Source of the DNA: an uncultured Chthonomonadaceae bacterium
GTDB lineage: Bacteria; Armatimonadota; Chthonomonadetes; Chthonomonadales; Chthonomonadaceae
Length of the DNA: 64,000 nucleotides
Assembly (NCBI GenBank): GCA_963817895.1
Contig: CAWFQB010000005.1
Location: 320,001-384,000, forward strand
Direction: 5' to 3'
Under the pieces are notes generated by a model. The model saw nothing but the letters and a program-made list of their open reading frames with translations, was not told the DNA's origin and searched no databases. Every line of letters starts with the position of its first letter. The first letter of the stretch is position 1. Made by a program: the position numbers and the translations under genes. Below are positions 4,522 through 58,061 of the stretch, piece after piece.

Positions 4522-4566
4522 ACCACCCGCCTGTGTCTCTGTGTCTCTAGCCGCAGGCAGGTGGTT
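4522..4566. repeat. Truncated octamer-arm element (CTCTGTGT units), related to 15664-15811
   Basis: ACCACCCGCCTG..TGTCTCTGTGTCTCTAG..CAGGCAGGTGGTT; contains the aat stop codon. Confidence 0.75.
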
Positions 4567-5149
4567 CGTTAAATTTACAGGGCAGGCGGAGGGCGCGGCG
4601 CAGGCGGTCGTAATACTGGCGGTGCGGGATTTCGATTGCGCCCAGGCTTTGCAGGTGCGGCGTCAGGTATTGCACATCCAACAGCGTGAAGCCCCGCTCA
4701 TTCAAATGTGATACTAGAGCGTGAAGGGCCACTTTGGAAGCGTCCGTTTCCCGGTGGAACATGCTTTCCGCCATAAACGCGCCGCCCAGACTCACTCCAT
4801 ACGTTCCCCCGACAAGCTGCCCATTGCGCCAGGTTTCCACACAGTGCGCTTTGCCCATGCGGTGCAGTTCTCCATACAGGGCGATGAACTCTTCCGAAAT
4901 CCACGTTCCCTCTTCCCGGTCGGCGCAACCGCGCATCACGCCCTCAAAGTCCGTATCCACGCGCGTCTCAAACACGCCCTGCCGAATGGTTCTGGCAAGC
5001 GAACGCGACGTGTGAAATCCGTCCAGCGGCATAATCGTACGCGGGTCGGGCATGTACCAGCGCAGTTCGTCAATGTCGTCGTGGTACATCGGAAAGATGC
5101 CCCGACGGTACGCGAATTCAATTCCGGCAGGCGTGAAGGTTAGGAACAT
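4547..5149 (-). CDS. aat: Leucyl/phenylalanyl-tRNA--protein transferase
   Basis: Motifs AYRRGIFPM, AHCVETW..LVGGTYGV, FMAESMF..TDASKVAL, LDVQYLTPHL. Confidence 0.93.
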   Translation of the reverse strand: MFLTFTPAGIEFAYRRGIFPMYHDDIDELRWYMPDPRTIMPLDGFHTSRSLARTIRQGVFETRVDTDFEGVMRGCADREEGTWISEEFIALYGELHRMGKAHCVETWRNGQLVGGTYGVSLGGAFMAESMFHRETDASKVALHALVSHLNERGFTLLDVQYLTPHLQSLGAIEIPHRQYYDRLRRALRLPCKFNEPPACG

Positions 5150-5162
5150 GGCAGGTAGGGAT

Positions 5163-5229
5163 GAGATACGAGATACGAGATACGAGTAAAAACTAGAGCC
5201 TCGTATCTCGTATCTCGTATCTTGTATCT
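5163..5229. repeat. Palindromic heptamer-array element (GAGATAC)n / (GTATCTC)n
   Basis: Left arm 5163-5186, 13-nt spacer, right arm 5200-5229. Confidence 0.9.
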
Positions 5230-5566
5230 AAATCAAACAAACCGGCAGCGTGAACGTCCCATCGGCATTGGGCGGGAAGGGGACGGTTTGGGTGACGGCG
5301 GATGTGTTCAATGGGCCGTAGATGTGCGGGTAGGTGCCGCCATTGGCCGCGAGTTCATATTTGATTTCGGATTGTACCTGATGGGCATCAATGACAAGCA
5401 GAATGAGATTGGTTTGTCCGTGAAAGAAATTTATGGCCGTCTTCGCCGCCTGCGCGGGCGTGGAACAGTGGATAAAGCCTTCGGTGTCTAAACTTGCCGC
5501 GCGGTACTCCCCGCTCGTCTGCGCGGTTTGCCAGTCTTCAGGCGTACAAATATGCAGCAGCGTCAT
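5228..5566 (-). CDS. DUF952 domain protein
   Basis: Motifs SLDTEGFIHCST and YPHIYGPLN. Confidence 0.9.
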   Translation of the reverse strand: MTLLHICTPEDWQTAQTSGEYRAASLDTEGFIHCSTPAQAAKTAINFFHGQTNLILLVIDAHQVQSEIKYELAANGGTYPHIYGPLNTSAVTQTVPFPPNADGTFTLPVCLI

Positions 5567-5782: not shown

Positions 5783-8700
5783 ATGTTGATTGGACTTTCC
5801 GCTTTGCTGCTACATGCCATGCCTGTGGCGCGTCTTCATGCCGCGCCCCGCGCCGATATGCGCGTTGCAAATCTGCGCTGCGAGTATCTGCCGAACCCGC
5901 TTGCGATTGAAACCACGCGCCCGCGTTTGTACTGGACGCTTGAGTCGAAACAGCGCAATCAGACGCAGTCGGCGTATCAGATTCTGGTGGCAAGCGCGCC
6001 CGAAGAACTGAAAGCCGACCGGGGAGATTTGTGGGACAGCGGCAAAGTTGTGTCCGACCAGTCCATTCACGTCGCGTATAACGGGAAGCCGCTCCATTCC
6101 GGGCAGGCCGCGTGGTGGAAAGTGAAAACCTGGGACAAACAGGGGCGCGAGTCGGCGTTCAGTTCGCCCGCGCATTGGGAAATGGGCATGTTGTCGCCGG
6201 GGGATTGGAAAGCGCAATGGATCGGGATGCCCGCGTCTGCCGCTGCCAACAACGCGAATATCTGGCAGAACGCGAAATGGATATGGTATCCCGAAGGCAA
6301 CCCGCGCCAATCGGCTCCGGCAGGAAACCGCTTGTTCCTGCGCTCTTTTCCGATACGCGCGAACGCGACCGTAGCAAAAGCGGAACTCATCGGGATTGTG
6401 GACAACTCTTTCGAGGCGTTCGTCAATGGCAAGCGCGTTGGTTCGCAGTCCGGCTGGCAATCCCCCGCCCGCATAGACATTAAAGACAGGCTGAAGCCGG
6501 GTGACAATACCGTCGCCCTTGTCGCCAACAACACGGATGGGCCGGCGGGCCTTGCGGCTGTGGTTTCCATTACCTACGCGGACGGCAACGTAACTCGCGT
6601 CGCTACCGGTAAAGACTGGCAGGCAAGTAAGGACGAGGCGAAACCCAGCAGTTCCGCAAGCGCGACTGCCGCCCTGCTTCCCGCGATGGAAATCGCCAAC
6701 ATCGGGGACGCGCCCTGGGGGATGCCGGGAGGAACGGCGATAGACCGTCCTGCCCCCTATCTGCGCAAAACTTTTACCGTTGGCAAGCCCCTGCGTTCCG
6801 CCCGCGTGTACGCGACCGCGCAGGGATTGTACAAACTCAGTTTCAACGGCAAGCCTGTCAGTCAGGATATTTTCCGCCCCGGCTGGACGGATTACAACAA
6901 GCGCATTCAGTACCAGACGTATGATGTGACCCATCTGCTGCAATCCGGCAACAATGCGGTTGGCGTTGTATTGGGTGACGGCTGGTTCTGCGGGCATGTC
7001 GGATTGACGGGCGGCAACAACTACGGGACGCAGCCCCGCGCCTTTGTCCAACTGCATCTCACCTACACGGATGGCACATCCGAAACCGTCGTTTCCGATG
7101 GCTCGTGGAAAGCCGCAAATGGCCCCATACTGCGCGACGACCTGCTGGACGGCGAAACCTACGACGCTCGCAAAGAAATGCCCGGCTGGAATACGGCGGA
7201 GTTCGATGACCATTCGTGGCAGCAGGCAGAGGAAGAAAAGGAGAAAAGGAGAAGAGGAGAAGAGGAGACAAATCTCTCCACTCTCCACTCTCCACTCTCC
7301 ACTCTCCTCGTGAGCCAGCCTGACCAATCAGTTGAGAAGGTGGAGGAGTTGAAGGCGCGGAGCGTGGCGGAAAAACCGAAGAGCGCGTATGTGTTCGATC
7401 TGGGGCAGAACATGGTGGGATGGGCGCGGATTAAGGTAAAGGCGGAAGCGGGAACGGTTGTCCGGGTCCGGTTTGCCGAAATGCTCAACCCCGATGGCAC
7501 GATTTATACCACGAACCTGCGCGGGGCGAAGGCGACGGACTATTATACGTGCCGGGGCGGGGGAAATGTGGAAACGTGGGAGCCGTCGTTCACCTTTCAC
7601 GGCTTCCGGTATGTGGAATTGACGGGATTGGACAGTAAACCGGGATTGGATGCCGTGACGGGAGTGGTGATTACGTCCGCAACCCCTCCGGCGGGAACCT
7701 TCGCGTGTTCCAGCCCGCTTGTCAACCAATTGCAGCACAACATCGTGTGGGGACAGCGGGGCAACTATCTGGAAGTGCCGACGGATTGCCCGCAGCGCGA
7801 CGAGCGATTGGGATGGATGGGCGACGCGCAGATTTTCGTTCGCACCGCCACGTACAACAGCGACATTGCCGCGTTTATGACCAAGTGGACACAGGACGTG
7901 GTGGACGCGCAATCGCCGGACGGAGGATTTTCGGACGTGACGCCACGCATGGGCGACAGGTCGGACGGCGCTCCTGCCTGGGGCGACGCGGGCGTTATCG
8001 TGCCCTGGACGATTTACCGCTGCTACGGCGACACGCGACTGGTGGCGGAGCGTTACCCGGCCATGCAAAAGTGGATCGAATACATCCGCTCCGCCAATCC
8101 CGATTTCATCTGGCGCAAACGGGCCAACAACAATTTCGGCGACTGGCTCAACGTGCAGTCCGACACGCCCCGCGAAATTCTGGCGACCGCGTACTTCGCG
8201 TATGACACCAAACTGATGGCGCAGATGGCGCGGGCAATTGGCAGGGAAGAGGACGCGAAACAGTACGAAGCGTTGTTCGCCAACATTAAAGCCGCGTTCA
8301 ATCGGGAGTTCGTCGGGGTGGACGGCAGAATCAAGAGCGACACGCAGACGGCGTATGTGCTTGCTCTGCGGTTCGGATTGCTGCCGGAAGCAAAGCGCGA
8401 AATCGCCGCCCGGTATCTCGTGGACGACATCGTAAACAAGCGCAAGGGTCATTTATCTACCGGGTTTTTGGGAGTCGGGTATTTGACCCCAACCCTGACG
8501 CAGACCGGGCATCTGGATGTGGCGTATCGCCTGCTCAACAATGACACGTATCCGTCATGGGGCTATTCCATCCGGCAGGGCGCGACGACAATCTGGGAAC
8601 GCTGGGACGGCTGGACGGAAACCAAAGGCTTTCAAGACCCTGGCATGAACAGTTTCAACCACTATTCGCTTGGTTCGGTTGGGGAATGGATGTATGCCAG

Positions 8701-9067
8701 TGTGGCGGGTATTGACCTCGACCCCACGCAGCCCGCGTACAAGCACAGCGTTCTGCATCCGCATCCCGGCGGCGGCCTGACGTATGCCCGCGCCACGTAT
8801 GACAGCATACACGGGCGCATCATCAGCGATTGGAAACTGGAAAACGGCCAGTTCGCGTACCGCATCACGGTCCCCGCCAACACGACCGCAACGGTTTACG
8901 TGCCTGCGTCCACTGCCGAACAGGTGATGGAGAGCGGCAAACCGGCGGGCAAAGCGGAGGGCGTAACATTCGTTCGCATGGAAAACAACTGCGCTGTCTA
9001 CGAAGTCGGGTCAGGAGTTTATACATTCACCGCGCCCCAAACTGCCGACAGCCTTGCGCAACGCTAA
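5783..9067 (+). CDS. Alpha-L-rhamnosidase, GH78, secreted
   Basis: Motifs VFDLGQNMVG, FTFHGFRYVE, PTDCPQRDERLGWMGD, GATTIWERW, MNSFNHY; signal peptide. Confidence 0.93.
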   Translation: MLIGLSALLLHAMPVARLHAAPRADMRVANLRCEYLPNPLAIETTRPRLYWTLESKQRNQTQSAYQILVASAPEELKADRGDLWDSGKVVSDQSIHVAYNGKPLHSGQAAWWKVKTWDKQGRESAFSSPAHWEMGMLSPGDWKAQWIGMPASAAANNANIWQNAKWIWYPEGNPRQSAPAGNRLFLRSFPIRANATVAKAELIGIVDNSFEAFVNGKRVGSQSGWQSPARIDIKDRLKPGDNTVALVANNTDGPAGLAAVVSITYADGNVTRVATGKDWQASKDEAKPSSSASATAALLPAMEIANIGDAPWGMPGGTAIDRPAPYLRKTFTVGKPLRSARVYATAQGLYKLSFNGKPVSQDIFRPGWTDYNKRIQYQTYDVTHLLQSGNNAVGVVLGDGWFCGHVGLTGGNNYGTQPRAFVQLHLTYTDGTSETVVSDGSWKAANGPILRDDLLDGETYDARKEMPGWNTAEFDDHSWQQAEEEKEKRRRGEEETNLSTLHSPLSTLLVSQPDQSVEKVEELKARSVAEKPKSAYVFDLGQNMVGWARIKVKAEAGTVVRVRFAEMLNPDGTIYTTNLRGAKATDYYTCRGGGNVETWEPSFTFHGFRYVELTGLDSKPGLDAVTGVVITSATPPAGTFACSSPLVNQLQHNIVWGQRGNYLEVPTDCPQRDERLGWMGDAQIFVRTATYNSDIAAFMTKWTQDVVDAQSPDGGFSDVTPRMGDRSDGAPAWGDAGVIVPWTIYRCYGDTRLVAERYPAMQKWIEYIRSANPDFIWRKRANNNFGDWLNVQSDTPREILATAYFAYDTKLMAQMARAIGREEDAKQYEALFANIKAAFNREFVGVDGRIKSDTQTAYVLALRFGLLPEAKREIAARYLVDDIVNKRKGHLSTGFLGVGYLTPTLTQTGHLDVAYRLLNNDTYPSWGYSIRQGATTIWERWDGWTETKGFQDPGMNSFNHYSLGSVGEWMYASVAGIDLDPTQPAYKHSVLHPHPGGGLTYARATYDSIHGRIISDWKLENGQFAYRITVPANTTATVYVPASTAEQVMESGKPAGKAEGVTFVRMENNCAVYEVGSGVYTFTAPQTADSLAQR
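7229..7308 (+). repeat. In-frame repeat element in the GH78 gene: (GGAGAARA)n + (CTCTCCA)n
   Basis: Translates as EEEKEKRRRGEEETNLSTLHSPLSTL. Confidence 0.88.
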
Positions 9068-9331
9068 ATGAGACAGTAATGGAAAATAAGCGCTGAACAC
9101 CCGGTACCTACCTGTTGCGTTGCACGCTCGCTTTCGGGAACCTTTTGCGGACGGCTTGCGTCACACGCGCAGTTAGCTCTGACGCTGACTGAAAAGATGT
9201 GTTTTACCCGACGCCTGAAACTAAAGCCGCCGTTTTCGTTTTGTCGCGTCGGTTTGCGTGATCCACTCTGCATGTTAATCAAGAACACCCTGCGCGGCAG
9301 GCGCGAACCTGCGCGACAGGAGGAGAAAACC

Positions 9332-9790
9332 ATGAGCGACAATACGATTCGACAGGATGAAGTGGTCAATGAAATCCACAATGATACCCATCACGACGCC
9401 AAAGTGGGCGGCGAACTCGGTGGCATTGGCGGAGCCGTGACAGGATTGGCGGCGGGCGCGGTGGCCGGACCGGTGGGCGCGATTGTGGGCGCGGTGATCG
9501 GCGGCGTGGCGGGCGCGCTTGGCAGCGCGGCAGCTGTGGACGCGGTTGACAAGATTGACGACGATACCACTATCTCCGGGCTGGGCCATCACACAACGGC
9601 CACTATTGGCGGCGCGGCAGACAATGTTGCCGACCATGTGACGCACCCCGCCGGATACGTTCCAGGCGTTCAAACGGGTGGCCATGCCATTGATGGCTCC
9701 GGCGCTGCCGATACGCGCGGCGTCATGGAGAAGGCGGCGGACACCATCACCGGCGACCATATTGACGACAAGACCGGACGACCGGTTTAG
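9332..9790 (+). CDS. Glycine-zipper hydrophilic hypothetical protein
   Basis: GGIGGAVTGLAAGAVAGPVGAIVGAVIGG; AGGAGGAG RBS before ATG 9332. Confidence 0.75.
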   Translation: MSDNTIRQDEVVNEIHNDTHHDAKVGGELGGIGGAVTGLAAGAVAGPVGAIVGAVIGGVAGALGSAAAVDAVDKIDDDTTISGLGHHTTATIGGAADNVADHVTHPAGYVPGVQTGGHAIDGSGAADTRGVMEKAADTITGDHIDDKTGRPV

Positions 9791-10007
9791 GTGTCAGGTG
9801 TTGGGTATCAGGTGTCAGGGAGAACTAATTGTATCAAGTTGAGTCTGTGATTTGCAACAGCGCAGTCCCTGACACCTGATATCAACACCTAATACCTGCA
9901 TCTCACAACAGGCCATTCTTGTATCCACAGGAATGGCCTGTTTGTTTGCCGGTTTATGTAGAAAGTTTTGTGTAAGGCGCATACCCAACACCCAATACCT
10001 GACACCC
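9789..10007. repeat. Palindromic heptamer-array element (CAGGTGT)n with an extra right arm
   Basis: Left arm 9789-9821, right arm 9866-9899, further ACCCAAY/ACCTGAC units at 9983-10007. Confidence 0.85.
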
Positions 10008-10065
10008 AAACCTCGAATTTACCCTTTCCCCGTAACTTGCGCCCCTCCCGTTCGTCATAAAAAGT

Positions 10066-12208: not shown

Positions 12209-12213
12209 TCATA

Positions 12214-13037: not shown

Positions 13038-13157
13038 GCAGGTGTCAGGTATCAGGTGTCAGGTGTCAGGGCAGACCTTTTCTCGTTCCCTTGTACCAGT
13101 GCAACGCAAGGAGAAATGGCTTTCCCTGACACCTGACACCTGATACCTGACACCTGC
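13038..13157. repeat. Perfect 34-bp inverted repeat of CAGGT(G/A)T heptamers with a 52-nt spacer
   Basis: 13038-13071 is the exact reverse complement of 13124-13157. Confidence 0.95.
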
Positions 13158-14445
13158 ATGGAGCCTTCCATGAACCTGCTAGAGAGTTTGCGAGTCGCCA
13201 TGCGCGGACTTGCCAGTAATAAAATGCGGACGATGTTGACGATGCTGGGCATCATCATCGGCGTGGCCGTCGTGATTCTGGTGGTTGCCATCGGGCAGGG
13301 CGCGACGCAGCGCGTGACGGAAACCATTAACCAGTTAGGAACCAATCAGCTTTCCATCTGGCCGGGGCAGTCGCATATCCGCATCAATGCGGTTACGAAG
13401 TCCAGCGGCGCGACAGCAACAGGTTCCACAAGCGGCGGAGGTGGTGGCGGTTCCACGCTGACGCTCCTTGATGCGAACTTGATCGCGAAAAACTTTCCGG
13501 AAGCGGTGGCGGCAGTGGCCCCGCAGGTGCGCGGTAATGCGCAGGTGCGTTTGGAAAACAAAGACGCCAACACCAATATCACCGGCTCCACAGTGGAATA
13601 CCTGCAAGTCAGCAACGCGGATGTGGACAGCGGACGGTTCTTTACGGAAAATGAGCAGGAGGGCAGCCAGAAGGTCTGCGTGGTCGGACATAGCGTTTCG
13701 GAAAAACTGCTCGGCGATGCCAGTATTGATTTGACCGGCAAAGATATTCTTTTGAACCGCATCGGCTTTCATGTCATCGGTATGCTGAAACCCAAAGGGT
13801 CGGGCGCATGGGGGCAGGATCAGGACGACGTGATTATCATTCCGATTACAACGGCCATGAATCGCGTTTTGAACCGTCGCTTCCTCAACTTTGTCGCTAT
13901 CAGCGCGACAAGCCAGAAGATGATGCCGCTTGCGCAGGAGCAGATTTCCGCTTTTCTACGTAACCGCCACCATTTGCAGCCGCCGTTCCCCGATAACGAC
14001 GACTTCAACATCCGCAGCCAGACGGAACTGATGGAATCGCAGCAGAGCGTGACCGGAACTATGACCACTCTGCTTAAGCGCGGTTGCTGTCATTTCGCTT
14101 GTCGTCGGCGGCATCGGCATTATGAACATCATGCTCGTGTCGGTCACGGAGCGAACCCGAGAAATCGGAATTCGCAAAGCCATTGGAGCCACGCCCCGCG
14201 ACATTTCCATGCAGTTTATCATCGAAGCGACGATTATTTCCCTGCTTGGCGGGCTGCTTGGCATCTGCCTGGGCGTGGGCGGCGCAGCCATCTTATCGCG
14301 CATCGCGGGCTGGAATACGGTTGTGAACTCCACCGCTGTTCTCGCGGCTCTTGTCGTCTCGGGTGGTATCGGTATCTTCTTCGGCATCTACCCGGCCAGC
14401 AAAGCCGCCGCCCTGCACCCGATAGAAGCATTGCGCTATGAGTGA
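13158..14445 (+). CDS. ABC transporter permease (MacB/FtsX type); frameshift near 14075
   Basis: N-part: [13 protein letters not shown]. After a +1 base the sequence continues [46 protein letters not shown]. Confidence 0.9.
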
Positions 14446-15665
14446 TCTGAAGCCGGGAATGTTTCACGCCCTGACGTACCGCAATTTCCGGCTGTTCTTC
14501 TACGGGCAACTGATTTCGGTCGCGGGAACCTGGATGCAGGACGTGGCCCAGAAGTGGCTCGTCTGGGAAGTGACGCACTCCCCGAAGTGGCTGGGCATTG
14601 TATCCGGCGCGAACGCGATTCCATTTGTCGTATTTGCCGTATGGGGCGGGCAAATCGCGGATCGCTATTCGCGCCGCGTAATTCTGGTGTGGACGCAAAC
14701 CATTGCCATGCTGCTCGCCTTTGTTCTTGCCCTCCTCGCGTCCCATGTTTCTCCCATTTCGCTTCAGGCGTGGCATATCGCCGTGATTTCGGGCTTGTCG
14801 GGGATTGTCAACTCGTTCAATATGCCCGCGCAACAGGCGTTCGTCGTGGACATGGTGGACGACCGCAAATTGTTGGGCAACGCGATTGCGCTCAATTCCC
14901 TGCGCTTTAATGTGGCTCGTATTCTTGGCCCGATTCTCGCCGGAATTGTGCTGGTCAAAGTCGGCTCGTCCGCGTGTTTTTTCCTCAACGGCGTGAGTTT
15001 CATCGCCGTGATTATCTCCCTGCTGATGATACACCTGCCGCCGTTTTCCCCTGCGGAAAATCGCGGCTCGGTTCTGGATGGCTTCCGCTATATTCGGGAC
15101 AATCACAGCATTTTGCGCGTGATGCTGCTCATCGGCTCGGCCAGTATTTTCACATGGCCGCTTTCCACGCTGTTTCCCGTGTTCGCGGATATGTATAACG
15201 TGGGTTCGCGGGGATATAGCGCGATGATGGCGGCGAACGGACTTGGGCGCGGCGCTTGCGGGTTTGGCTCTGGCGTGGGTGGGAACGCGGGTTTCGAGCA
15301 AAATGAAGGTGTACGGCGGCGCGGCTTTGTTCTGCCTGTCTCTTCTGCTGCTGTCGTGGGCGGGGCTGTACTGGGTTGCGCTCGCCTGTTTGGTGTTGAG
15401 CGGCTTCGCCATGATCGTGTTCGGCATCAGTTCGCAGATTAAAGTGCAGGAGGAGGTTCCCGACGAGTTGCGCGGGCGGGTGATGGCGGTCTATTCCCTT
15501 GTGTTCAACGGCCTGTTTTCGATTGGCGGTCTGGAAATCGGCACTCTCGCGGAACATCTTCATGCGCCTGTCGCCGTGCGCCTGAACGCCGTTATTGCGT
15601 TTGTCATCACAGGCGCGTTGCTCGCCTGGAGTCGGGTGGATCAGCCGAAAGCAGCAGTTAATTAA
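14438..15665 (+). CDS. MFS transporter (DUF894/MFS_3 type); frameshift near 15247
   Basis: [20 protein letters not shown]; the C-terminal part [11 protein letters not shown] is in another frame. Confidence 0.88.
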
Positions 15666-15811
15666 CCACCCGCTACGCTAGAGACACAGAGACACAGAGG
15701 AAAAGACAATGCGAGAAAGAGAAGATGCGTACTTTTTACGGTACTTCTCTCTTCTCCTCCCCTCGAATTGGTTCCCTCTGTGTCTCTGTGTCTCTAGCGT
15801 AGCGGGTGGTT
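15664..15811. repeat. Perfect 37-bp inverted repeat with GACACAGA octamers and a 74-nt spacer
   Basis: AACCACCCGCTACGCTAGAGACACAGAGACACAGAGG at 15664-15700; exact reverse complement at 15775-15811; lies between convergent genes. Confidence 0.95.
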
Positions 15812-15813
15812 GA

Positions 15814-45322: not shown

Positions 45323-45820
45323 ATGATACAGATAACTAACGAGCAATTGAAAGCGATACGGCGGCATGGCGTGGCGGCGTTTCCGCGCGAGTGCGTAGGC
45401 GTTTTGCTCGGCGATGTGAGTGGGGATACTAAAATTGTGCGGGAAACGCGGTCGCTGGACAACACCTTTGCCCCAAGCGAAGACTTTGAGCGCAGTGTGC
45501 TTGCGGACGGCGAAGCGCGGGAAGTGGAAACTGTTGGGCAAGAGAAGCGGTATCTGATTTCGCCGGACACGATGTTCCAGTTGATGCGCGAAGAGCGGCA
45601 GACGAAGCGCAAAGTATTGGGCTTTTACCACTCGCATCCCAACCATCCCGCCCGCCCCAGCGTGTATGACCGCGAATGGGCCTCCCCATGGTATACGTAC
45701 ATCATCGTCTCCATTCTGGACGGAAAACCGGACGCCCTGACTGCGTGGCAGTTGACCGATGACCGCGCCGCCTTCAACCCGGAAGAGATCGAAGGGATTG
45801 CGGAAAATAGACAGGATTAA
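45323..45820 (+). CDS. mec: JAB/MPN metallopeptidase (Mec-like, M67)
   Basis: PRECVG and GFYHSHPNHPARPSVYD (JAMM motif). Confidence 0.88.
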   Translation: MIQITNEQLKAIRRHGVAAFPRECVGVLLGDVSGDTKIVRETRSLDNTFAPSEDFERSVLADGEAREVETVGQEKRYLISPDTMFQLMREERQTKRKVLGFYHSHPNHPARPSVYDREWASPWYTYIIVSILDGKPDALTAWQLTDDRAAFNPEEIEGIAENRQD

Positions 45821-45848
45821 CAGGATTTTTCAGGATGGACAGGATTAT
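45810..45848. repeat. ACAGGAT-based array (about 9-nt period), single arm
   Basis: GACAGGATTAACAGGATTTTTCAGGATGGACAGGATTAT; contains the mec stop codon. Confidence 0.75.
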
Positions 45849-47068: not shown

Positions 47069-47163
47069 CAACCTTCCGCCTGTTTGAAACGTAAGTAATT
47101 GCACGAGGGCCGCTGCAAAGACGGAGGCGGCGCGACAGCAATTGACAAAGGAACCTGACGATT

Positions 47164-48724
47164 ATGGCAAAAGTGCTTATTCCGACCGCCCTGCAGCAGT
47201 TTGCAGGCGGCACGGACGAACTTGATGTACCCGGCGCGACGGTTCAGGAAGTGCTGGACGGCTTGGGCGAACAGTACCCCAACCTGAAAAAGCAACTGTT
47301 CAACGACAAGGGCGAACTGCGCCACTTTGTCAATGTGTACAAGGGCGCGGAAGACACCCGAACACTGCAAGGGATGGACACGCCCGTCAGCGACGCGGAC
47401 GAACTCAGCATCGTGCCGAGCATCGCGGGCGGCACGGCAGTGGAAGGGAAGAGGGAAGAGGGAAAAGGGAAGAGTGAGGATTCACTTCGCAACCTTCAAC
47501 CCTCAATCTTGCCCAATACCCAACGCCTCATACCTAATACTCGCGCCGTCATTTCCGAAGACCGGGCGGAAGACGCGCAACTGACGCAATGAAGAGATTT
47601 TGCGGTACAGCCGTCACCTGATTTTGCCGGAAGTGAATATGGAGGGGCAGAAGAAACTCAAGGCGGCAAAAGTGCTGCTGATCGGCACGGGCGGGCTGGG
47701 ATCGCCGCTTGCGCTGTATCTGGCCGCTGCGGGCGTGGGGACGCTTGGGCTGGTGGATTTCGATGTGGTGGACGTGACCAATTTGCAGCGGCAGATCATT
47801 CACGGCACGAACGATGTGGGGCGACCGAAAGCGGTATCGGCTACGGAAACCATTAAAGACATCAACCCCAACGTGAATGTGATTAGATACGAGGAGCAGT
47901 TCACGTCCGAAAACGCGATGCGGATCGCGAAAGATTTCGACATCATCATTGATGGAACCGACAACTTTCCCACCCGCTACCTGACCAATGACGTGAGCGT
48001 TCTGCTCGGCAAGCCGAACGTCTACGGCTCTATTTTCCGATTTGAGGGGCAGGCGTCCGTTTTCTGGGCCGAGCAGGGGCCGTGCTACCGCTGCCTGTAT
48101 CCGGAACCGCCGCCCCCCGGACTGGTTCCCTCGTGCGCGGAAGGCGGCGTTTTGGGCGTTCTGCCGGGTATTGTGGGCTGTATTCAGGCCAATGAAGCCA
48201 TCAAACTGATTTTGGGCATCGGCCAGCCGCTTATCGGACGCTTGCTGCTGTTCAACGCGCTGAAAATGAAGTTCCGCGAATTGAAACTGAAAAAAGACCC
48301 GAACTGCCCGATTTGCGGCGCCAATGCCACCATTCACGAACTGATAGATTACGAGGAGTTTTGCGGTATTCGGGGCGAGGAAGCGCCGGCGCAGGAGATT
48401 CAGCAATCGGAAGAGATTACCGTGCAGGAACTCAAAGCCCGCATGGATCGGGGCGAAAAGCTGACCGTCATAGATGTGCGCGAACCCTACGAGTTCAGCA
48501 TCGCCCGCATTCCCGGCACAACCCTGATTCCGCTCGGCCAGATTGCGGAGCGTAGCGGGGAACTGGACCCGAACGAAGAGATCATTCTGCACTGCCGCAG
48601 CGGCAAGCGCAGCGCGGACGCCCTGAACCAACTGAAAGCCAAAGGCTTTACCAAACTGAAAAACCTGACCGGCGGCATCCTCGCGTGGAGCGATGACATA
48701 GACCCGACGGTAGCGAAATATTAG
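47164..48724 (+). CDS. moeB: MoaD/ThiS ubiquitin-like + MoeB/E1 + rhodanese; probably one fusion with a frameshift near 47587
   Basis: Ubl ends SIAGG. Removing one base gives LTNEEILRYSRHL. GTGGLG, SCAEGGVLG; rhodanese IDVREP..HCRSG. Confidence 0.85.
47443..47541 (+). repeat. In-frame repeat element in the Ubl-MoeB linker: (GGGAAGA)n + CCCAATA-like heptamers
   Basis: Translates as GKREEGKGKS..LPNTQRLIPNT. Confidence 0.8.
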
Positions 48725-48783
48725 ACAGGGAGAACGCGGTTCCCAATCTCCTTTTCTCCTTTTCTCCCTGTCTCCTCTTCTTC
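48723..48783. repeat. Octamer-type palindromic element after moeB
   Basis: AGACAGGGAGAA pairs with TTCTCCCTGTCT inside a TCTCCTTT array. Confidence 0.75.
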
Positions 48784-48839
48784 CCCCCGTTTCTGCCGAT
48801 AATTTCAGTCGGCAGAAACGGGGCAGGAGGAGAAACATC

Positions 48840-49763: not shown

Positions 49764-50050
49764 AGAGTTGATAGTTGATAGGAACTACACGCCTGCCGCG
49801 CTCATTCCTCCCATTCTGCATTGGTCTTCGGATTTTGCCGAACATTCGCTTTCTCCCTCGTAATTCTATTTGCGTTCATTCGCGTGTCTTCGCGGCTCAC
49901 ACCTCTTTCCTGTTCCGGCAATAAGTCAGAAAGCCGGCAGGAGACGGGGGCAGGGTTAGCGAACAAGATGGCAACTCTATGGCGGCGTCATACGGAGAGC
50001 AGTACCCCACGCGCCGCAACTCACCGATTTCTTACGAGGCGAAGACCACC

Positions 50051-50269
50051 ATGCAGATGGAAAAGAAAATTACCACCAAAGAAGACGGACGTTTCCTCGT
50101 CTACTACCACTTCCCCGACACCGCGACCGAAGAAGAGACGCAGGTGTTTGAAGGGATAGAGGAAGAAAAGGAGAAAAGGAGAAAAGGAGAAAAGGAGACA
50201 GAAGAGGATTCATCCTTCATCCTTCATCCTTCATCCTTGCCTGAGACCGGAGGTGTTCCTCATGTCTGA
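50051..50269 (+). CDS. Small hypothetical protein upstream of galT
   Basis: MQMEKKITTKEDGRFLVYYHF; overlaps the galT start. Confidence 0.55.
   Translation: MQMEKKITTKEDGRFLVYYHFPDTATEEETQVFEGIEEEKEKRRKGEKETEEDSSFILHPSSLPETGGVPHV
50159..50238 (+). repeat. In-frame repeat element: (GGAGAAAA)n + (TTCATCC)n
   Basis: Translates as EEEKEKRRKGEKETEEDSSFILHPSSL. Confidence 0.85.
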
Positions 50270-51247
50270 AATGCGCTGGAATCCTGACCACTGAAGAGTG
50301 GATTATTACCGCAACCCACCGGCAGGATCGGACGTTCTTCCCGCCGCCGGACTACGATCCGCTCGCGCCCACGAAACCGGGCGGATTTCCGACCGAAGTG
50401 CCGACGCCGACGTATGAGATCGTGGTCTTTGAAAACAAATTCCCATCCCTGCGCCGCGACCCGCCCGCGCCCGCCATTGAAGGCACGGATTTCGAGCCGG
50501 TTCGTCCTGCGCAGGGCGTGTGCGAAGTGGTCTGCTACACGCCGCAGGCCGATACCGAACTTGCCAATCTGCCCGTAACCAAAATCGAGCAGTTGATACA
50601 TGTATGGGCCGACCGCTTTGAAACCCTGAGCGCGTATCCGTTCGTCCATTATGTGTACATCTTCGAGAACAAGGGCAAGGAGATCGGCGTCACCCTCGCG
50701 CATCCGCACGGGCAGATTTACGCTTATCCGTTCATCCCGCCCATTCCCGCTACGGAACTGAACGCCGCGCGCAATTACAAGGCAAAGACGGGGCAGAATC
50801 TGTACGCCACGATTGTAGCCGGGGAGATGCAGGACGGCAGGCGCATTGTCACGCAGAACGACCATTTTCTGGCCGTCGTGCCGTTTTACGCCGCGCTATC
50901 CCTACGAGGTTCATATCCTGGCAAAAGGAGATAAACCGGCGATTGCAGACTTCGACGACGCGGAAAAGCACAGCCTTGCCCTGATCCTGAAAACCGTGAT
51001 GGCAAAGTACAACGCCCTGTTCAACCGCTCGATGCCCTATATCATGCTGATGCACCAGCGACCGAGCGACGGCGACAGTTCGCAGTACGATTATTACCGC
51101 TTCCACATCGAATTTTACCCGCCGTATCGCACAGCCGACAAACTGAAATATCTGGCCGGTTCCGAAGCGGGCGCGAACGTGTTCATCAACGACACCCTGC
51201 CCGAAGTCACCGCCAAAACCCTGCGCGACCTGGAACCGCAAAGTTGA
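50262..51247 (+). CDS. galT: Galactose-1-phosphate uridylyltransferase; frameshifts near 50287 and 50890
   Basis: MSEMRWNP, VFENKFPSL, FENKG.EIGVTLAHPHGQ, KLKYLAGSE. Confidence 0.92.
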
Positions 51248-52311: not shown

Positions 52312-52551
52312 ATGACAGTGACATTGGAAGAAGCCAATACGCAATTTGCCGCATTGGTAGCGCGCGCAGTTTCGGGGGAAGAAGTCATTATCTCCGACGG
52401 ACAGAACGCTCTTGTTCGCATGGTGTCTGTCGGCATCAATAGCGAAAGCAGGCCTCGCCGCGTTCCGGGCAGCGCGAAAGGCAAAGTTATAATTGCGGAG
52501 GATTTCAATGCGCCTCTGCCGGAGGATATTTTGGAGGGATTCGCGGGATGA
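52312..52551 (+). CDS. Phd/YefM-type antitoxin
   Basis: VTLEEANTQFAALV..GEEVII, RVPGSAKG..EDFNAPLP. Confidence 0.88.
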   Translation: MTVTLEEANTQFAALVARAVSGEEVIISDGQNALVRMVSVGINSESRPRRVPGSAKGKVIIAEDFNAPLPEDILEGFAG

Positions 52552-52934
52552 ACACTCTTCTCGACACGCATAGCTTTCTCTGGTGGGTTACAGATGACCC
52601 GCAACTCTCTCCTCGCGTTCGCAACATTTTGGAAGACGGCGCGAACACGATCTACTTCAGTTCCGCCATTGCGTGGGAAATCGCCATCAAAACGCAAATC
52701 GGCAAGTTGTCCCTGCCTGATTTGCCCGCGCGTTTTATCTCGGAGCAAATTGCCCTGCACGGCTTTGAGGAACTGCCGATAACAACCGCTCACGCGTTGC
52801 AAATTTATACCCTGCCGCTATTACACCGTGATCCCTTTGACCGCGTTCTGGTTACGCAGTGTCAGGTGGAGGGATTCTCTATTCTCACAACAGATAGCCT
52901 GATTGCCCAATATGGCGTATCAACTATCTGGTAA
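52548..52934 (+). CDS. vapC: VapC PIN-domain toxin
   Basis: LLDTHSFLW, WEIAIK, HRDPFDR; ATGA overlap with the antitoxin. Confidence 0.92.
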   Translation: MNTLLDTHSFLWWVTDDPQLSPRVRNILEDGANTIYFSSAIAWEIAIKTQIGKLSLPDLPARFISEQIALHGFEELPITTAHALQIYTLPLLHRDPFDRVLVTQCQVEGFSILTTDSLIAQYGVSTIW

Positions 52935-53286: not shown

Positions 53287-53412
53287 GGGTAGAGAGTAGG
53301 GAGTAGAGAGTAGGGAGTAGGCGCTGACGACAAGTTCGTTTGAATAAGTCGCTGATTGCACTCAGTAAAAGTGTAAGCCTACTCCCTACTCTCTACTCCC
53401 TACTCTCTACCC
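53287..53412. repeat. Perfect 36-bp inverted repeat of alternating AGTAGAG/AGTAGGG heptamers with a 54-nt spacer
   Basis: 53287-53322 is the exact reverse complement of 53377-53412. Confidence 0.95.
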
Positions 53413-53441: not shown

Positions 53442-54953
53442 GTGTCATTGCAGATCAATACCAACGTGACCGCGCTCAACGCGCTCGACAACCTCAACAA
53501 AGTTTCCGGCAGTGTCGCCAGCAGCATCGAAAAACTGTCTTCCGGCCTGCGCATCAACCGCGCTGCCGATGATCCCTCCGGGCTGATCATCTCCGAGTCG
53601 CTGCGCGCCCAGATTGACGGCCTCAACCAGGCCGTCAGCAACAGCCAGGACGCCACCAACCTGATCAAAACTTCCGAAGGCGCCCTTACCGAAGTGAACA
53701 GCCTGCTGCGCAACGTGCGCCAGCTTGCCGTTCACGCCGCCAACACCGGCGTCAACGACCAGGTAGCGGTACAGGCCGACCAGACGCAGATCAGTTCGGC
53801 CATTGCCAGCATCCAACGCATCGCCGAGCAGACGCAGTTCGGAACCAAGCGCCTGCTCGACGGCTCTTCGGGCATCTCCGCAGCGGTTGTGGATACCAGG
53901 AACGTGGCGGGCATCAGCATCGGCGGCGTGTTCAACAACCTCACCACGCAAAGCGGAACCGTCAACGTGGTTGTCAATTCCGTTGCCACTCGCGCTCAGG
54001 TATCGGGCACGGCTCTGGCGACGTATGCCAGCGTCAACGCCAGCATCAGCACGGTCAACGGCCTGAAAACCGGTAACGGCGGCTCGGTTGTTCTCAACGG
54101 ACAGACCATCAGCATCAGCGGTTCCGATACCGTGCAGACGCTCATCAACAAGATCAACAACCTGGCAAGCACAACCGGCGTATCCGCCGACTTCACCAGC
54201 GGCAACGGTTCGGGCGCTATCGTGCTGACGCAGCAGAACTATGGCGCCAACTTCGCCATCAACGAGAGCGAGTCTTCGCCCCTGCTGACGGGTACGGGTT
54301 CGCCCACGCTGGTCAAGGGGAGCAATGCCACTGTCACCGTTATCGCTTCCGCTCTGGTTAATGGCGTCGTCACCAGCGTCGTCGCCACCTTCACCGGGGG
54401 ACGTTCCGCCACCGACAGCGGGCTGAAAGTGACGGATACCTACGGTAACAGCATCCTGTTGCAGGAAGCGTTCCAGTCTACCTACGTCAGCCCGACAGGT
54501 TCGCCGCAGCTCACGGTTGCGACGGTTTCGGCAGGCAACTTGCAGTTCCAGATCGGCGCCAACGCCGGGCAGACGGTAACTGCGAGCCTGGGCAATGTGC
54601 GCGCCACCAACCTGGGCAATACCAGCGTGGCCGGCTCGAACCTGTCCCTGATTGATGTGACGACCGCAACGGGAGCCACCAACGCGATCACCATCACGGA
54701 TGAAGCGATTGGGCAGGTGACGCAGTTACGCGCCAATCTCGGCGCCTTCCAGAAGAACACGCTCGACTCGACCATCAACTACCTGACGGTGGGCGTGGAG
54801 AACCTGTCCGCGTCGGAAAGCCAGATACGCGACACGAACGTGGCCTCGGAAGTCGTCAACCTGACCAAGAACCAGATCATTCAGCAGGCAGGCACCTCGG
54901 TGTTGGCGCAGGCGAATCAGGCTCCGCAGTCCGTGCTTTCCCTGCTCAAGTAG
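53442..54953 (+). CDS. fliC: Flagellin
   Basis: INTNVTAL, EKLSSGLRINRAADD, FQIGAN, RANLGA.Q, SESQIRD, LAQANQ.PQ.VLSLL; GGAGG RBS before GTG. Confidence 0.97.
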   Translation: MSLQINTNVTALNALDNLNKVSGSVASSIEKLSSGLRINRAADDPSGLIISESLRAQIDGLNQAVSNSQDATNLIKTSEGALTEVNSLLRNVRQLAVHAANTGVNDQVAVQADQTQISSAIASIQRIAEQTQFGTKRLLDGSSGISAAVVDTRNVAGISIGGVFNNLTTQSGTVNVVVNSVATRAQVSGTALATYASVNASISTVNGLKTGNGGSVVLNGQTISISGSDTVQTLINKINNLASTTGVSADFTSGNGSGAIVLTQQNYGANFAINESESSPLLTGTGSPTLVKGSNATVTVIASALVNGVVTSVVATFTGGRSATDSGLKVTDTYGNSILLQEAFQSTYVSPTGSPQLTVATVSAGNLQFQIGANAGQTVTASLGNVRATNLGNTSVAGSNLSLIDVTTATGATNAITITDEAIGQVTQLRANLGAFQKNTLDSTINYLTVGVENLSASESQIRDTNVASEVVNLTKNQIIQQAGTSVLAQANQAPQSVLSLLK

Positions 54954-55082
54954 ATAGGTAGGCAGGTAGATGAGTAGATAGGTAGATAGGTAGATAGTAA
55001 ACGATAAACTGGTGGGTTTGTTGGTAAACGTTGCACACGCGATAGCCACAATCTACCTATCTACCTATCTACTTATCTACCT
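54950..55082. repeat. Palindromic octamer-array element (GTAGATAG)n with a 55-nt spacer
   Basis: 54964-54995 pairs with 55051-55082 with one G-T pair; the array begins at the fliC TAG. Confidence 0.92.
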
Positions 55083-55095
55083 TCAAGGAGTTTCC

Positions 55096-57417
55096 ATGAG
55101 CGGCAGCATCAACTTTTCAGGTCTCTCTTCCGGCATTGACAGCGCCAGTATCATTCAGCAGTTGATCGCCGTAGACAAGGCGCCGGAAAACTCCATCAAA
55201 ATTCAGCAGCAGTATCTACAGCAGCGACAAACGGCGTACACCACCATCAGCGCCAAACTGCTCGGTTTGCAGGCGGCCACGTACAGCCTGGACGCCCTGC
55301 GCGCCTTCAATCTTGTGACCGCAACGAGCAGCAGCGCGACGGTTGCGACCGTGAGCGCGCAAACCGGGGCGCAAACCGGGACGCACTCGATCAGTGTGAC
55401 CAATCTGGCGCAGGCGCAGTTGATTGGCACGGGCGCGCAAACCAGCCAGACGAACCCGCTCAACCGGCACGGACAAATCATTATCAATGGCAAGGCCATC
55501 AATTACCAGGATTCCGACAGTCTGCAAACCCTTGCCGCCAACATCAATGCGGCCCAACCGGGCGTCACGGCGTCCATCATTACGCCGACCACCGGCCAGT
55601 ACTATCTCACGCTGGGCAGCACAAATTCCGGCATTCAGGGCAAAATCAACATCAGCGACGCGGGAACGGGAACCCTGCTGGGCGGCACGCTCGGACTGTT
55701 TGCCAATACGTCGAGTTTCGCCCATCCGCTGGCAGGCGGCGTGAACGGCTCCGGCCTGTTTACCGACAGCGCGACCAGCGTAGGCACGCTGGAGGGGCAG
55801 ACATCTCCGGCTGTGGGTAATGTGCAGCTGACAATCGGCGGCGCGATACAGAACGTTTCCATTGACCTGAGCCACTCCCTGAGCCAGATTGCCAGGGACA
55901 TCAATGCTGTGGCGGCGGGAACGGCGCAGGTCGTCACCGTTACTGATCCCATTTCCAACACCAACAAGCAGCAGTTACAACTGAGCAACGTAACGGCGTT
56001 TACGGACAGCAACAACGTTCTTGCCAATCTGGGTATCGCGCAAAACAATCTGGCAACCGGCAATGAACTGACGCTGGCGCAGGATGCGGCTTTTACCATT
56101 GACAACATCAGCGCCAGCCGGGCCACCAACTCCTTTACGGACGCGATTTCGGGCGTGACCATCAATCTGCTGGCTGCCGGCAGCGCCAACCTGACTATAT
56201 CCAGCGACACAGCCACAATCAAAAGCAACATCCAGGATTTCGTCAAGGCCTATAACGACTCGCTCGACAGCATTGACAGTTACTCGCAATACGATTCTTC
56301 CAGCGGCAAAACCGGCCCGCTCTTCGGCGACAGCACCACGCAGAGCATTTACGACAGCCTTGTATCCCTGACCAATGGCACTGTCAGCGGCCTGCCCCTG
56401 AACCTGAGCCTGCTGTCTCAAATCGGCATTACACTGGGGCAGGATGACCGTCTCTCGGTGGATGACGCGACACTCTCTTCGCAATTAAGCGCGAACCTGA
56501 ACGGCGTCGCCAAACTATTTCAATCTTATGGAGTGCCGACGAACCCGACTGTGCAGTTCGTTTCGGGAACCAAAGATACCGTGCCGAGTTCCTCCAACGG
56601 GTATGCCGTGCAGGTATTTACGCCGGCAAGCCAGGCGACGTATACCACAGCGAGCGTACAAACGCAGCCGTTGTCGGCGGATGAAACGCTGACTTTCGCC
56701 GGCCCGCTGTTCGGCACGTCCACAACGGCTACTCCCTTGCAGGGGCGCAGCATTCAGCTTCTCGCGGGCGCGTCCGCGTCCGATATCGTGTCGCAAATCA
56801 ACGCGGACCCAGTTATCGGCGCGCAAATTTCCGCAACCCTGGCTCCGGGCGGGCAGCTGCGCTTTACCAGCAAGCAGTACGGCTCCGCAGCGGATTTCGC
56901 GGTCGTTTCCAGCGCCAGCATCGGGCCGGACACCAGCGGCATGGGAACCACCTCGCATGAGTTTCAGGGCGCGGATGTTGTGGGAACCATCAATGGCGAA
57001 TCGGCGACGGGGATAGGGCAGTTTTTAACGGGTTCGCAGATTGGCGGCAGTTACGGCGCAAACGGGCAAACGTTGGGCCTGCAATTGCGCGTGACGGCTA
57101 CCACGCCCGGCAGTTACGGCAATGTGGTTTACACCGCCGGTGTCGCGAATGTGGTGAAAAACTACATTACCACACAGACGGATGCCTACACGGGCGCGCT
57201 GACAACGGCGGCCAGCGGGCTTCAAACCAACATTGACAATTTTCAGAGCAACATTGACGAGATCGAGGCGAACCTTGCCAACGAACAGCAGCGTTTGAAA
57301 GATCAGTTTACGGCAATGGAAGTGGCGATTGCGCAGATCAAATCGGCCAGCGCGGGACTTGCCTCCCTGTCAACCACCAGTCTGTTGAGCAGTTCCAGCA
57401 GTTCCAGTGGCGGCTAA
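55096..57417 (+). CDS. fliD: Flagellar filament cap protein
   Basis: FSGLSSGID..IIQQL, AQDA.FTID, FVKAYN, G.LFGDS, RLKDQFTAME. Confidence 0.92.
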   Translation: MSGSINFSGLSSGIDSASIIQQLIAVDKAPENSIKIQQQYLQQRQTAYTTISAKLLGLQAATYSLDALRAFNLVTATSSSATVATVSAQTGAQTGTHSISVTNLAQAQLIGTGAQTSQTNPLNRHGQIIINGKAINYQDSDSLQTLAANINAAQPGVTASIITPTTGQYYLTLGSTNSGIQGKINISDAGTGTLLGGTLGLFANTSSFAHPLAGGVNGSGLFTDSATSVGTLEGQTSPAVGNVQLTIGGAIQNVSIDLSHSLSQIARDINAVAAGTAQVVTVTDPISNTNKQQLQLSNVTAFTDSNNVLANLGIAQNNLATGNELTLAQDAAFTIDNISASRATNSFTDAISGVTINLLAAGSANLTISSDTATIKSNIQDFVKAYNDSLDSIDSYSQYDSSSGKTGPLFGDSTTQSIYDSLVSLTNGTVSGLPLNLSLLSQIGITLGQDDRLSVDDATLSSQLSANLNGVAKLFQSYGVPTNPTVQFVSGTKDTVPSSSNGYAVQVFTPASQATYTTASVQTQPLSADETLTFAGPLFGTSTTATPLQGRSIQLLAGASASDIVSQINADPVIGAQISATLAPGGQLRFTSKQYGSAADFAVVSSASIGPDTSGMGTTSHEFQGADVVGTINGESATGIGQFLTGSQIGGSYGANGQTLGLQLRVTATTPGSYGNVVYTAGVANVVKNYITTQTDAYTGALTTAASGLQTNIDNFQSNIDEIEANLANEQQRLKDQFTAMEVAIAQIKSASAGLASLSTTSLLSSSSSSSGG

Positions 57418-57467
57418 CATATATCCTTGCAACCTGACATCCCCGAACATTCGGAGTAATACAACCC

Positions 57468-58061
57468 ATGGCTCTTGCCGATTCGTATCTCAAATCTCAT
57501 GCCGCAACAAATATCTCCGCGCCGCTGTCCAGAGTAGTGGTAAAGTCCCGAACAGGCAGCGCTTCGCAGCAGTACCAGAAGTCGCAGGTGGAAACCGCTT
57601 CCCCGACCCGGCTGGTCATCATGCTGTATGAGGGCGCGATTCGTTTTTGCCAGATTGCCCTGGATGCAATGGCCGCCCATGACCTGCCCGTTCAGCATGA
57701 GAACCTGCTCAAAGCGCAGCGCATCGTGGCGGAACTGCTCGGATCGCTGAACCGGGAAAAGGGCGGCGAAGTTGCGGACAATCTGGCGCGGCTGTACACC
57801 CATATGCTGGAACAACTGGTCGTGGCAAATCTCCACGATGAGCCGGAAGCCGTAAAACTGGTGCAATCCATGCTGCGCGATTTATGGGCCTCCTGGGTCG
57901 AAGTGGAACGGCTCGCTTCAGAGGGGGCAGGGGAAGAAAAGGAGAAGAGGAGAAAAGGAGAAGAGGAGAACAAGTTCCCGATCCCCAATGTCCAATCTTC
58001 AATCGAAAATCGCCAATCGGCAATTGGCAATCCGTCGCGTTTGGGGAGAGTCAATGCCTGA
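57468..58061 (+). CDS. fliS: Flagellar export chaperone with a repeat-derived C-terminal tail
   Basis: VETASP.RLVIMLYEGAIRF, KAQ.IV.EL..SL, NL.RLY. Confidence 0.93.
   Translation: MALADSYLKSHAATNISAPLSRVVVKSRTGSASQQYQKSQVETASPTRLVIMLYEGAIRFCQIALDAMAAHDLPVQHENLLKAQRIVAELLGSLNREKGGEVADNLARLYTHMLEQLVVANLHDEPEAVKLVQSMLRDLWASWVEVERLASEGAGEEKEKRRKGEEENKFPIPNVQSSIENRQSAIGNPSRLGRVNA
57932..58033 (+). repeat. In-frame repeat element in fliS: (GGAGAARA)n + (NNCAATC)n
   Basis: Translates as EEKEKRRKGEEENKFPIPNVQSSIENRQSAIGN. Confidence 0.85.

Follow-up and report, generated by a model that had tools for sequence, protein, structure and literature searches.

What kind of process spreads repeats over a bacterial genome in a conserved inverted layout while leaving the repeated unit free to vary? 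The question is raised by a 64-kb stretch of DNA from an uncultured Chthonomonadaceae bacterium (the window; G000:C5:320001-384000 of the 7.5-Mb genome G000, which is 81% complete), for which a preliminary description had listed about 19 sites with tandem units of 7-10 nt. Such arrays are present at all 19 sites, with one more at 9983-10009, and the sites are members of a genome-wide element family in which two inward-reading arms enclose a spacer. We show the anatomy and polarity of these elements, the cognate genes that lie between their arms, the replacement of elements at fixed sites, and empty alleles. Occupancy of a site is inherited while its units and its spacer are replaced. Conserved positions with replaced units, a share of one third for hybrid pairs and 233 in-frame loci extend the preliminary description, and new here are a 2x2 test of site memory, sites followed through three genomes, exchanges of cassettes for gene-less elements, swaps of single arms and several negative tests.

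A genome-wide family of polar elements

Tandem Repeats Finder (TRF) called 2,437 arrays of period 7-10 in G000, as compared with 38 after local shuffling. Scanning with the observed unit sequences returned 2,705 arm matches in G000 and 27 in shuffled DNA. The genome total stands at 2,508 arms at 1,517 loci, and the elements cover 105 kb, or 1.4%, of the genome. The scan for 7-10-mer arrays paired with their reverse complement, which had been proposed as a check, yielded 528 matched pairs among 788 (median spacer 51 nt) and 260 mismatched pairs (median spacer 20 nt).

Going inward from the flank, one reads a strand that has much G and almost no C; in class A arms it contains 41% G, 32% A, 23% T and 5% C. 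Among neighbouring arms within 150 nt, a left arm precedes a right arm in 792 cases and the reverse order occurs in 8, and the sister genome G002 gives 227 and 5. When neighbours within the same distance are scored by G/C skew only, a G-rich arm precedes a C-rich arm in 659 cases and follows it in 32, so the rule is independent of how arms are labelled. The order of arms that had been described is thereby borne out, but the first arm is C-poor rather than purine-rich. The arms also show a telomere-like strand bias.

Two classes of arm can be distinguished. Class A arms have units of 7 or 8 nt, ragged ends and no conserved end motif, and their length is counted in units, with modes at 30-31 nt for 7-mers and 35-36 nt for 8-mers (four units and a part). 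Class B arms have about three units of 8-10 nt and sharply defined ends, and are often nested; nested and stacked loci make up about 170 of the 1,517. Variant units are common to both arms in 283 of 320 elements, as compared with 63% for arms taken from different elements. The GATTTTC/GATTGCC word family forms almost only the innermost arm of stacked loci in G000 and G002, so its own direction cannot be assigned. Other palindromes in G000, of a GTAG-type REP-like kind (78 matches) and of the CCCTCTCCC family (185 matches), sometimes lie in spacers or at the site where G002 carries an arm element.

Spacers had been described as unique, which holds for most of them in that they lack a close match (515 spacers fell into 477 clusters) but not for all, since diverged homologues of about 70-75% identity occur within unit families (30 pairs, against 0 among shuffled spacers), and 30 of 170 sampled spacers beat their best control. 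Whole elements have therefore been copied. Substitutions between homologous spacers are symmetric and transition-rich with no adenine bias. No central motif was found in the spacers, and a conserved inner hairpin appeared as a weak trend only (median z -0.49 in 218 spacers, -0.14 in 200 controls). We also considered spacers as deletion remnants of cassette genes and set this aside, as no resemblance was visible by eye.

The elements have preferred places. At co-directional junctions (n=290) they start a median of 1 nt past the stop codon and end 16 nt before the next start codon, and divergent junctions are under-used (25/424 for matched class A elements, against 13% of junctions). Called genes can also contain elements: 207 of them hold 233 in-frame loci, almost all oriented so that a polar peptide without stop codons results. 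In such places mismatched pairs predominate (86/145, against 18/424). Gene-less copies are present in both 16S genes and in the 23S genes of G000, including helix tips (G000:C4:153478-153559, 154837-154873 and 874972-879036; C5:866650-866755; C14:269488-269547). There is no Rfam match in the window, where the copies sit between or in protein genes. Among 476 matched elements just 30 have a U-tail, and 167 of the 2,508 arms contain four GGG tracts, so neither intrinsic terminators nor quadruplexes explain the family; nor is the arm sequence kept across relatives, as the preliminary description had supposed it would be in ordinary conserved terminators.

Cassette genes and replacement at fixed sites

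Genes of two families are bracketed by the arms. G000 contains two four-helix-bundle genes (TIGR02436/PF05635; C1:1459251-1459622 and C2:440275-440646) and four GxxExxY genes (TIGR04256/PF13366), and all six lie between matched arms, each with its own unit; the arms are of class A around the four-helix-bundle genes and of class B around the GxxExxY genes. The proposed tie between these two families and the repeats, read as non-autonomous elements or cassette scars, is upheld, and so is the claim that no single MITE (a miniature transposable element with inverted repeats) is involved. The four commonest 9/10-nt families of G000 are the words found around its four GxxExxY genes.

The same association is seen across phyla. 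Among loci with full flanks, taken, in each large scan, from the top 80 of about 600, inverted flanking arms accompany 84 of 105 four-helix-bundle loci and 88 of 110 GxxExxY loci; as controls for the former, 8 loci had arms in direct orientation and 3% of cross-locus pairs matched. The upstream arms called at four-helix-bundle loci consist of 7-mers in 68 of 84 cases, and the arms at GxxExxY loci of 8-10-mers. An open reading frame (ORF) on the same strand lies upstream of 53 of 57 four-helix-bundle loci, and a quick tree of 70 four-helix-bundle proteins left 35 of 67 inner branches open. Ten IMG/VR contigs (L136-L145) carry four-helix-bundle cassettes with heptamer arms, which makes viral contigs a possible route of horizontal spread. 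In G000, the cargo between matched arms 200-1,800 nt apart comprises the two cassette families, ordinary genes and three ORFs that appear transposase-like by eye (G000:C3:336282-337417, C3:364015-365389 and C14:676198-677787), as if insertion sequences (IS) had entered the spacer.

GxxExxY proteins, whose function is listed as unknown in an available passage (PMC3424549), keep D62, E72 and K74 invariant in 14 sequences, and Q86 is kept as well. The structural model (pLDDT 95) has a PD-(D/E)XK-like fold and finds its best match in Cas4 SSO0001 (Z 8.1, root-mean-square deviation 3.3, 96 aligned), which ties with other nucleases, so that the fold search singled out no specific nuclease subfamily. 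By motif and by modelled fold, the GxxExxY cargo is a predicted nuclease of the PD-(D/E)XK type. The solved structure of the four-helix-bundle homologue 2GSC has five chains, and the available account of it describes a pentameric ring (PMC4990558). Among 120 listed of 249 longer four-helix-bundle homologues, an RNase H-like domain occurs in two rows, and many neighbouring domains occur only once.

Comparison with relatives covered 1.44 Mb of G002, which is 80-85% identical, and 205 kb of G001. The G002 sample has 454 loci, of which 189 could be mapped to G000 by both flanks. Where the G002 locus is two-armed, both arms differ from those of G000 at 56 loci and agree at 17, one arm differs at 13, and one is lacking at 21. 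The remaining mapped loci comprise 35 single-armed comparisons, 28 sites that are short and empty in G000, and 19 that are long without an arm. The empty alleles that had been predicted thus exist, as 28 short sites among the 189.

Sites retain their occupancy. G002 occupies 60 of the 67 junctions that are occupied in G000 and 38 of 155 that are free, and for short junctions the figures are 33/35 and 13/68. In G001 they are 7/13 and 3/22, often with a third unit. Arm boundaries at shared sites fall within 7 nt of each other at 75 of 98 ends. Between G000 and G002, spacers align at 2 of 30 sites with changed units (one site counted twice) and at 3 of 11 with unchanged units. Units at shared sites are closer to each other than permuted ones (20 against 5.3 at distance 0-1, and 28 against 13.6 at distance 2), a likeness that homology-primed copying predicts.

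Cassettes are exchanged at such sites too. Of 14 cassettes in the relatives, nine were mapped to G000. Three four-helix-bundle cassette sites hold a gene-less element of another unit in G000, two sites are empty, one has unrelated DNA, and three still carry their GxxExxY cassette: in one of these both arms have drifted in concert, in another the terminus is shared but the upstream arm behind it is a replacement, and the third is unchanged. The GxxExxY cassette L097 (G002:C19), whose upstream arm now belongs to another class B family, has a short tandem duplication at the gene start and may be decaying. Filled/empty pairs have near-blunt junctions. In 32 pairs of filled and short empty sites, inspection by eye revealed no consistent target duplication, in flanks that are 80-85% identical and with some of the empty sites perhaps arising by deletion; deletion is probably the origin of some empty alleles, to judge from a class B remnant at one of them.

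Presence of the cassette genes was compared with array density among related genomes. Six genomes of the same family without either cassette gene had 0 arrays of 7/8-mers in 235 kb, and 7 of 17 genomes with a cassette gene had some. The density of 7/8-mer arrays tracked GxxExxY gene count (rho 0.68; 23 related genomes, 8-140 kb each, which are not independent).

The elements of the window

By eye, 9 of the 19 listed sites are matched palindromes (5163, 9789, 13038, 15664, 20146, 39766, 40650, 53287 and 54950), five are pairs of unlike arms (7229, 47443, 49764, 50159 and 57932) and five are single arms (4522, 26498, 28438, 45810 and 48723); the word palindromic therefore fits nine of the sites and not the other ten. 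The same design stands at the same sites in two independent assemblies, which disposes of the concern that the repeats are artefacts of a single one. Five of 27 window proteins matched to the sister species are split over more than one frame, and genes that form a single ORF in G002 occupy several frames at 14438-15665, 13170-14442, 20209-23499 and 50021-51247. These are probably assembly indels, and exact unit copy numbers may therefore be off.

The matched class A element at 5163-5229 has the unit GAGATAC and a 13-nt loop, and its counterpart in G002 is a GGCATTA arm; GAGATAC reaches 25 per Mb in G000 and is absent from the G002 sample. Two class A elements have the unit GGTGTCA: one at 9789-9897, beginning at the stop codon of ORF 9272-9790, and one at 13039-13156, in which a variant unit is mirrored in both arms and whose junction in G002 has GGTAGAC arms and an unrelated spacer. 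The additional site at 9983-10009, absent from the preliminary list, is a single right arm of the GGGTGTT family. At 15664-15812, between convergent genes, a matched class B element with an ACCAC terminus and GAGACACA arms has outer arms common to G000 and G002, and in G002 its interior has been replaced by a nested compound. The near-matched class A element at 20146-20216 (GTAGTAA / GATAGTT) adjoins an IS701-family transposase copy at 19008-20078, one of 13 near-identical copies in the genome; targeting of the elements by IS701 was rejected, as an arm lies within 120 nt of only 1 of the 13. Matched class A elements also occur at a convergent junction at 39766-39843 (GGAGATA/GAGATAC) and at 40650-40781 (GGAGAAAA/GGAGAAGA, 66-nt spacer). 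Two class A elements flank flagellin. The one upstream, at 53287-53412 (unit GGGAGTA), has a counterpart of equal length in G002 with GGCATTA arms and an unrelated spacer. The one at 54950-55082 opens with the flagellin stop codon, and its unit GGTAGATA is cognate to the four-helix-bundle cassette at G000:C1:1459220-1459648; three different units occupy this junction in G000, G002 and G001.

Peptide-encoding copies in the window are found in a rhamnosidase, FliS, a ThiS-like protein and one small ORF, all on the forward strand. The mismatched element GGAGAAGA / GGAGAGT at 7229-7307 lies in frame inside the alpha-L-rhamnosidase gene 5783-9067; G002 has an insert with another unit at the identical codon, and in G001 the loop is 12 residues shorter. 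At 57932-58033 a mismatched element is translated as a C-terminal extension of FliS, and the right arm is common with G002 while the left arm has been replaced. A mismatched element at 47443-47530 is translated as the C-terminal extension of the ThiS-like protein, after its GG motif, and has other units at the identical place in G002. At 50159-50238, the element GGAGAAAA / GGATGAA lies in frame in ORF 50051-50269, and both arms are different in G002. The remaining mismatched site, 49764-49897, joins a class A left arm (GATAGTT) to a class B right arm.

Among the single arms, 4522-4566 is a class B remnant that retains both defined termini, its sole arm being the right one, of the GAGACACA family, at 4531-4548; the counterpart is a 369-nt nested class B element in G002 and belongs to another class B family in G001. 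Two class B arms stand beside aspS: a right arm of the GCGAATAAAC family upstream of it on the reverse strand (26496-26530), and a left arm on the forward strand (28438-28470) whose TAGCCGC terminus provides the aspS stop codon and whose unit also flanks the GxxExxY gene G000:C8:26407-26853. Both arms point outward, the upstream one facing away from the gene, and aspS is therefore ruled out as cargo. At 45808-45850, forward strand, a class B left arm GGATTAACA provides the stop codon of the JAB-domain gene 45323-45820; its unit also flanks the GxxExxY gene G000:C1:43915-44295. The site at 48722-48790 combines a class B terminus at the stop codon of a ThiF-family gene with a class A right arm at 48747-48781.

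Several neighbouring genes may be recorded. The cluster at 44110-48724 encodes a PALP enzyme, a JAB peptidase, the ThiS-like protein and a ThiF/rhodanese E1. The ThiS-like protein has a 52-residue tail past the GG motif; the repeat element encodes part of it, and removal of the tail by the JAB peptidase would be expected. Toxin-antitoxin-like pairs lie at 167-1248 (DUF433/PIN) and 52312-52934 (VapB/PIN), and TIR_2 domains are fused to a sulfatase-modifying-factor-like domain at 24419-26356. A 54-nt coding repeat of 3.2 copies at 4330-4501, in a small KGG-motif protein, is unrelated to the arm family.

Proposed mechanism, rival explanations and known systems

We regard it as plausible, at not quite an even chance, that these are selfish hairpin elements and that break-and-copy repair, guided by the cassette proteins, writes one copy over another where it stands. 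Each biochemical step of this proposal is one that we infer. An element would extrude a hairpin in transcribed DNA, and cleavage of this hairpin would fall either to the PD-(D/E)XK nuclease GxxExxY or to a hairpin nuclease of the host. After resection, the 3' end could anneal to the outer end of a donor arm over a few bases that both have in common, and be extended inward. Two-sided copying would replace the whole element, and one-sided or truncated copying would produce hybrids, stacks and single arms with polarity unchanged. The four-helix-bundle ring might bind arms of its own unit (four units and a part, giving five cores) and so favour that family as donor, and selection would retain those outcomes that spare a stop codon, ribosome-binding site, reading frame or RNA helix. 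Break-and-copy primed by short homology would account for the polarity, the replacement of whole elements and of single arms, the bias towards related units, the nesting and the exchange of cargo.

Several observations weigh against this proposal. Some unit replacements are at distance 3-4 or cross the classes, where there is little homology, and a comparison for younger inner arms was flat (58 against 57, and 40 against 29). The four-helix-bundle protein has no catalytic motif, and no fusion of it to GxxExxY (PF13366) was seen among the same 120 listed longer homologues. Its gene count is no predictor of array density (rho 0.13), and samples of 8-40 kb from eight genomes that have the gene showed no arrays in five. 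No cognate gene was found for the commonest units of G000 (GAGATAC and GGTTGTTA; genome 81% complete) or of G002 (GATAGTT and GGCATTA; genome 91% complete). Unit abundance and cognate gene go together in just three of five cases. Unit distance does drop as protein identity rises (rho -0.37 over 57 rows; permutation minimum -0.195), a trend that co-inheritance alone predicts.

This weak tie of gene presence to array density and unit abundance would be expected if host processes alone were at work, with palindrome cleavage, slippage and ectopic conversion rewriting the arrays, hairpins being tolerated or useful within operons as RNA-processing signals, and the small genes being passengers between the arms. 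The filling of short co-directional junctions (n=290) and of rRNA helix tips fits such an account, and arm-to-arm repair explains why variant units are so often common to both arms. We nevertheless consider it unlikely: across phyla, each of two unrelated protein families has an arm type of its own, the ends of class B are sharp, 7/8-mer arrays were lacking in the 235 kb sampled from genomes without cassette genes, and a functional signal would not need its unit to be exchanged.

Nesting and stacking, the family-specific homology of spacers, which indicates copying of whole elements, and the near-blunt look of several filled/empty pairs could instead reflect a trans-acting transposase, for example of the HUH/Y1 type as for REPINs, that inserts whole elements inside older ones whose arms are later deleted. 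G000 has three PF01797 genes, and immediately outside arms there is an excess of words from other families (412 against 143, of 1,346), although purine-rich ribosome-binding sites would give the same signal. The flanks of the three PF01797 genes, however, are not made of these arms. Two Y1 transposase genes (L008 and L009) are flanked by long inverted repeats of their own, unrelated to the tandem arms. Class A lacks a conserved end motif, and full insertion in genes would often bring in stop codons before deletion could come to the rescue. One third of pairs are hybrid, and the available account of REPINs reports no hybrids (PMC3337134). A transposase is thus, in our estimation, quite unlikely to be the source.

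Strict polarity, truncated copies and the telomere-like strand bias would also fit target-primed synthesis, in which an excised hairpin is reverse-transcribed into a cut target with an Avd-like protein, as in diversity-generating retroelements, and truncation leaves single arms; the four-helix-bundle protein has a weak similarity to Avd (20.6 bits against a cut-off of 80). We judge this RNA route highly improbable. G000 has a single PF00078 match, the search came up empty in G003, in G019 and in G023, a genome 97% complete with 200 arrays per Mb, and the spacer substitutions lack the adenine bias. In comparison with diversity-generating retroelements themselves, the family has no linked reverse transcriptase and no adenine mutagenesis, and shares only the distant similarity to Avd. 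Chance, simple slippage or assembly error, for which the assembly indels might speak, is refuted as a general account by the roughly 60- to 100-fold excess over shuffles, the occupation of the same sites in independent assemblies and the in-frame inserts at matching codons, and retains next to no probability.

The proposed break-and-copy spread has a parallel in homing endonuclease genes, but here the targets would be other elements at hundreds of sites, and no intron or intein is involved. The heptamer repeats of cyanobacteria known as short tandemly repeated repetitive (STRR) sequences resemble the family. MITEs, Correia, ERIC and Rickettsia RPE elements are likewise non-autonomous hairpins of about 120 nt that are sometimes in frame in proteins. 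Unlike MITEs, the present elements have no near-identical copies and no cognate DDE transposase, and the fixed ends of a MITE are found in class B but not in class A.

On present evidence, the family is REPIN-like in kind. As the available parts of the reports on REPIN-RAYT systems describe them (Bertels and Rainey 2011, PMC3337134; Di Nocera et al. 2013, PMC3733652), both kinds consist of many non-coding hairpins with conserved arms and near-unique spacers, have a cognate gene bracketed by the same repeat (here 6/6), and form several specificity groups per genome. Two inverted repeats around a variable spacer, able to form a hairpin, are present in the 528 matched pairs. In contrast, the genes bracketed here are TIGR02436/TIGR04256 rather than HUH (Y1) transposases, the arms are tandem words of 7-10 nt rather than palindromic REPs, and 260 of 788 pairs are mismatched. 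Overwriting in place and the translation of many copies also set the present elements apart from REPINs as described in those passages.

The S23p-type intervening sequences of 23S rRNA (Warrier et al. 2016, PMC4990558) seem to be a special case within the family. According to the available text, they too have a four-helix-bundle gene within terminal inverted repeats with heptamers, as do the cassettes in G000 outside the window, and are sporadic and horizontally spread (PMC4990558). They lie in rRNA genes, whereas the present cassettes lie in protein operons and are accompanied by about 1,500 gene-less copies; no copy in the window is in an rRNA gene, and gene-less copies elsewhere are in 16S and 23S genes. 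Four-unit heptamer arrays with inward pairs near stop codons have been described in Xanthomonas and Nostoc (Rehm et al. 2015, PMC4692102), and for the heptamers of Beggiatoaceae a repeat-binding protein was considered as perhaps the mobile part (MacGregor 2015, PMC4679880). These repeats share with ours the number of about four units, the inward pairing, the proximity to stops, the avoidance of divergent junctions and the same positions in sister species. The available passages of both papers discuss one unit, taken to be a regulatory or G-quadruplex motif, and do not connect it with cargo genes, whereas here few arms have the four G-tracts, dozens of units coexist, and units are exchanged at fixed sites. 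We found no paper that joins TIGR02436 or GxxExxY genes to dispersed repeat elements, in a literature search whose coverage excluded most subscription papers and all supplements.

The element family is real and widespread, has hardly been described, and is unusual in that its members are overwritten in place. It might count as categorically new, should the cassette proteins prove to be its drivers, which we think possible yet doubtful. With similar reserve, we suggest that it represents a transposase-free selfish class present in many phyla. Tandem words of DNA or RNA would be read there by a small ring protein, a minimal nuclease would open hairpins, and families would compete by overwriting one another at sites that are inherited. 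If so, one source would underlie the heptamer repeats of bacteria, the intervening sequences of S23p type in rRNA and a class of protein loops encoded by repeats, and a protein-to-word code would be readable from cassette pairs. Three puzzles become testable, namely the over-representation of heptamers, the origin of rRNA intervening sequences and the function of TIGR02436 and GxxExxY proteins. Each cassette points to its own candidate substrate. In this bacterium, hundreds of operon junctions have an element at the ribosome-binding site, and about 200 genes contain peptide loops that elements encode. Given these placements and a share of 1.4% of the DNA, the process shapes both expression and protein sequence.

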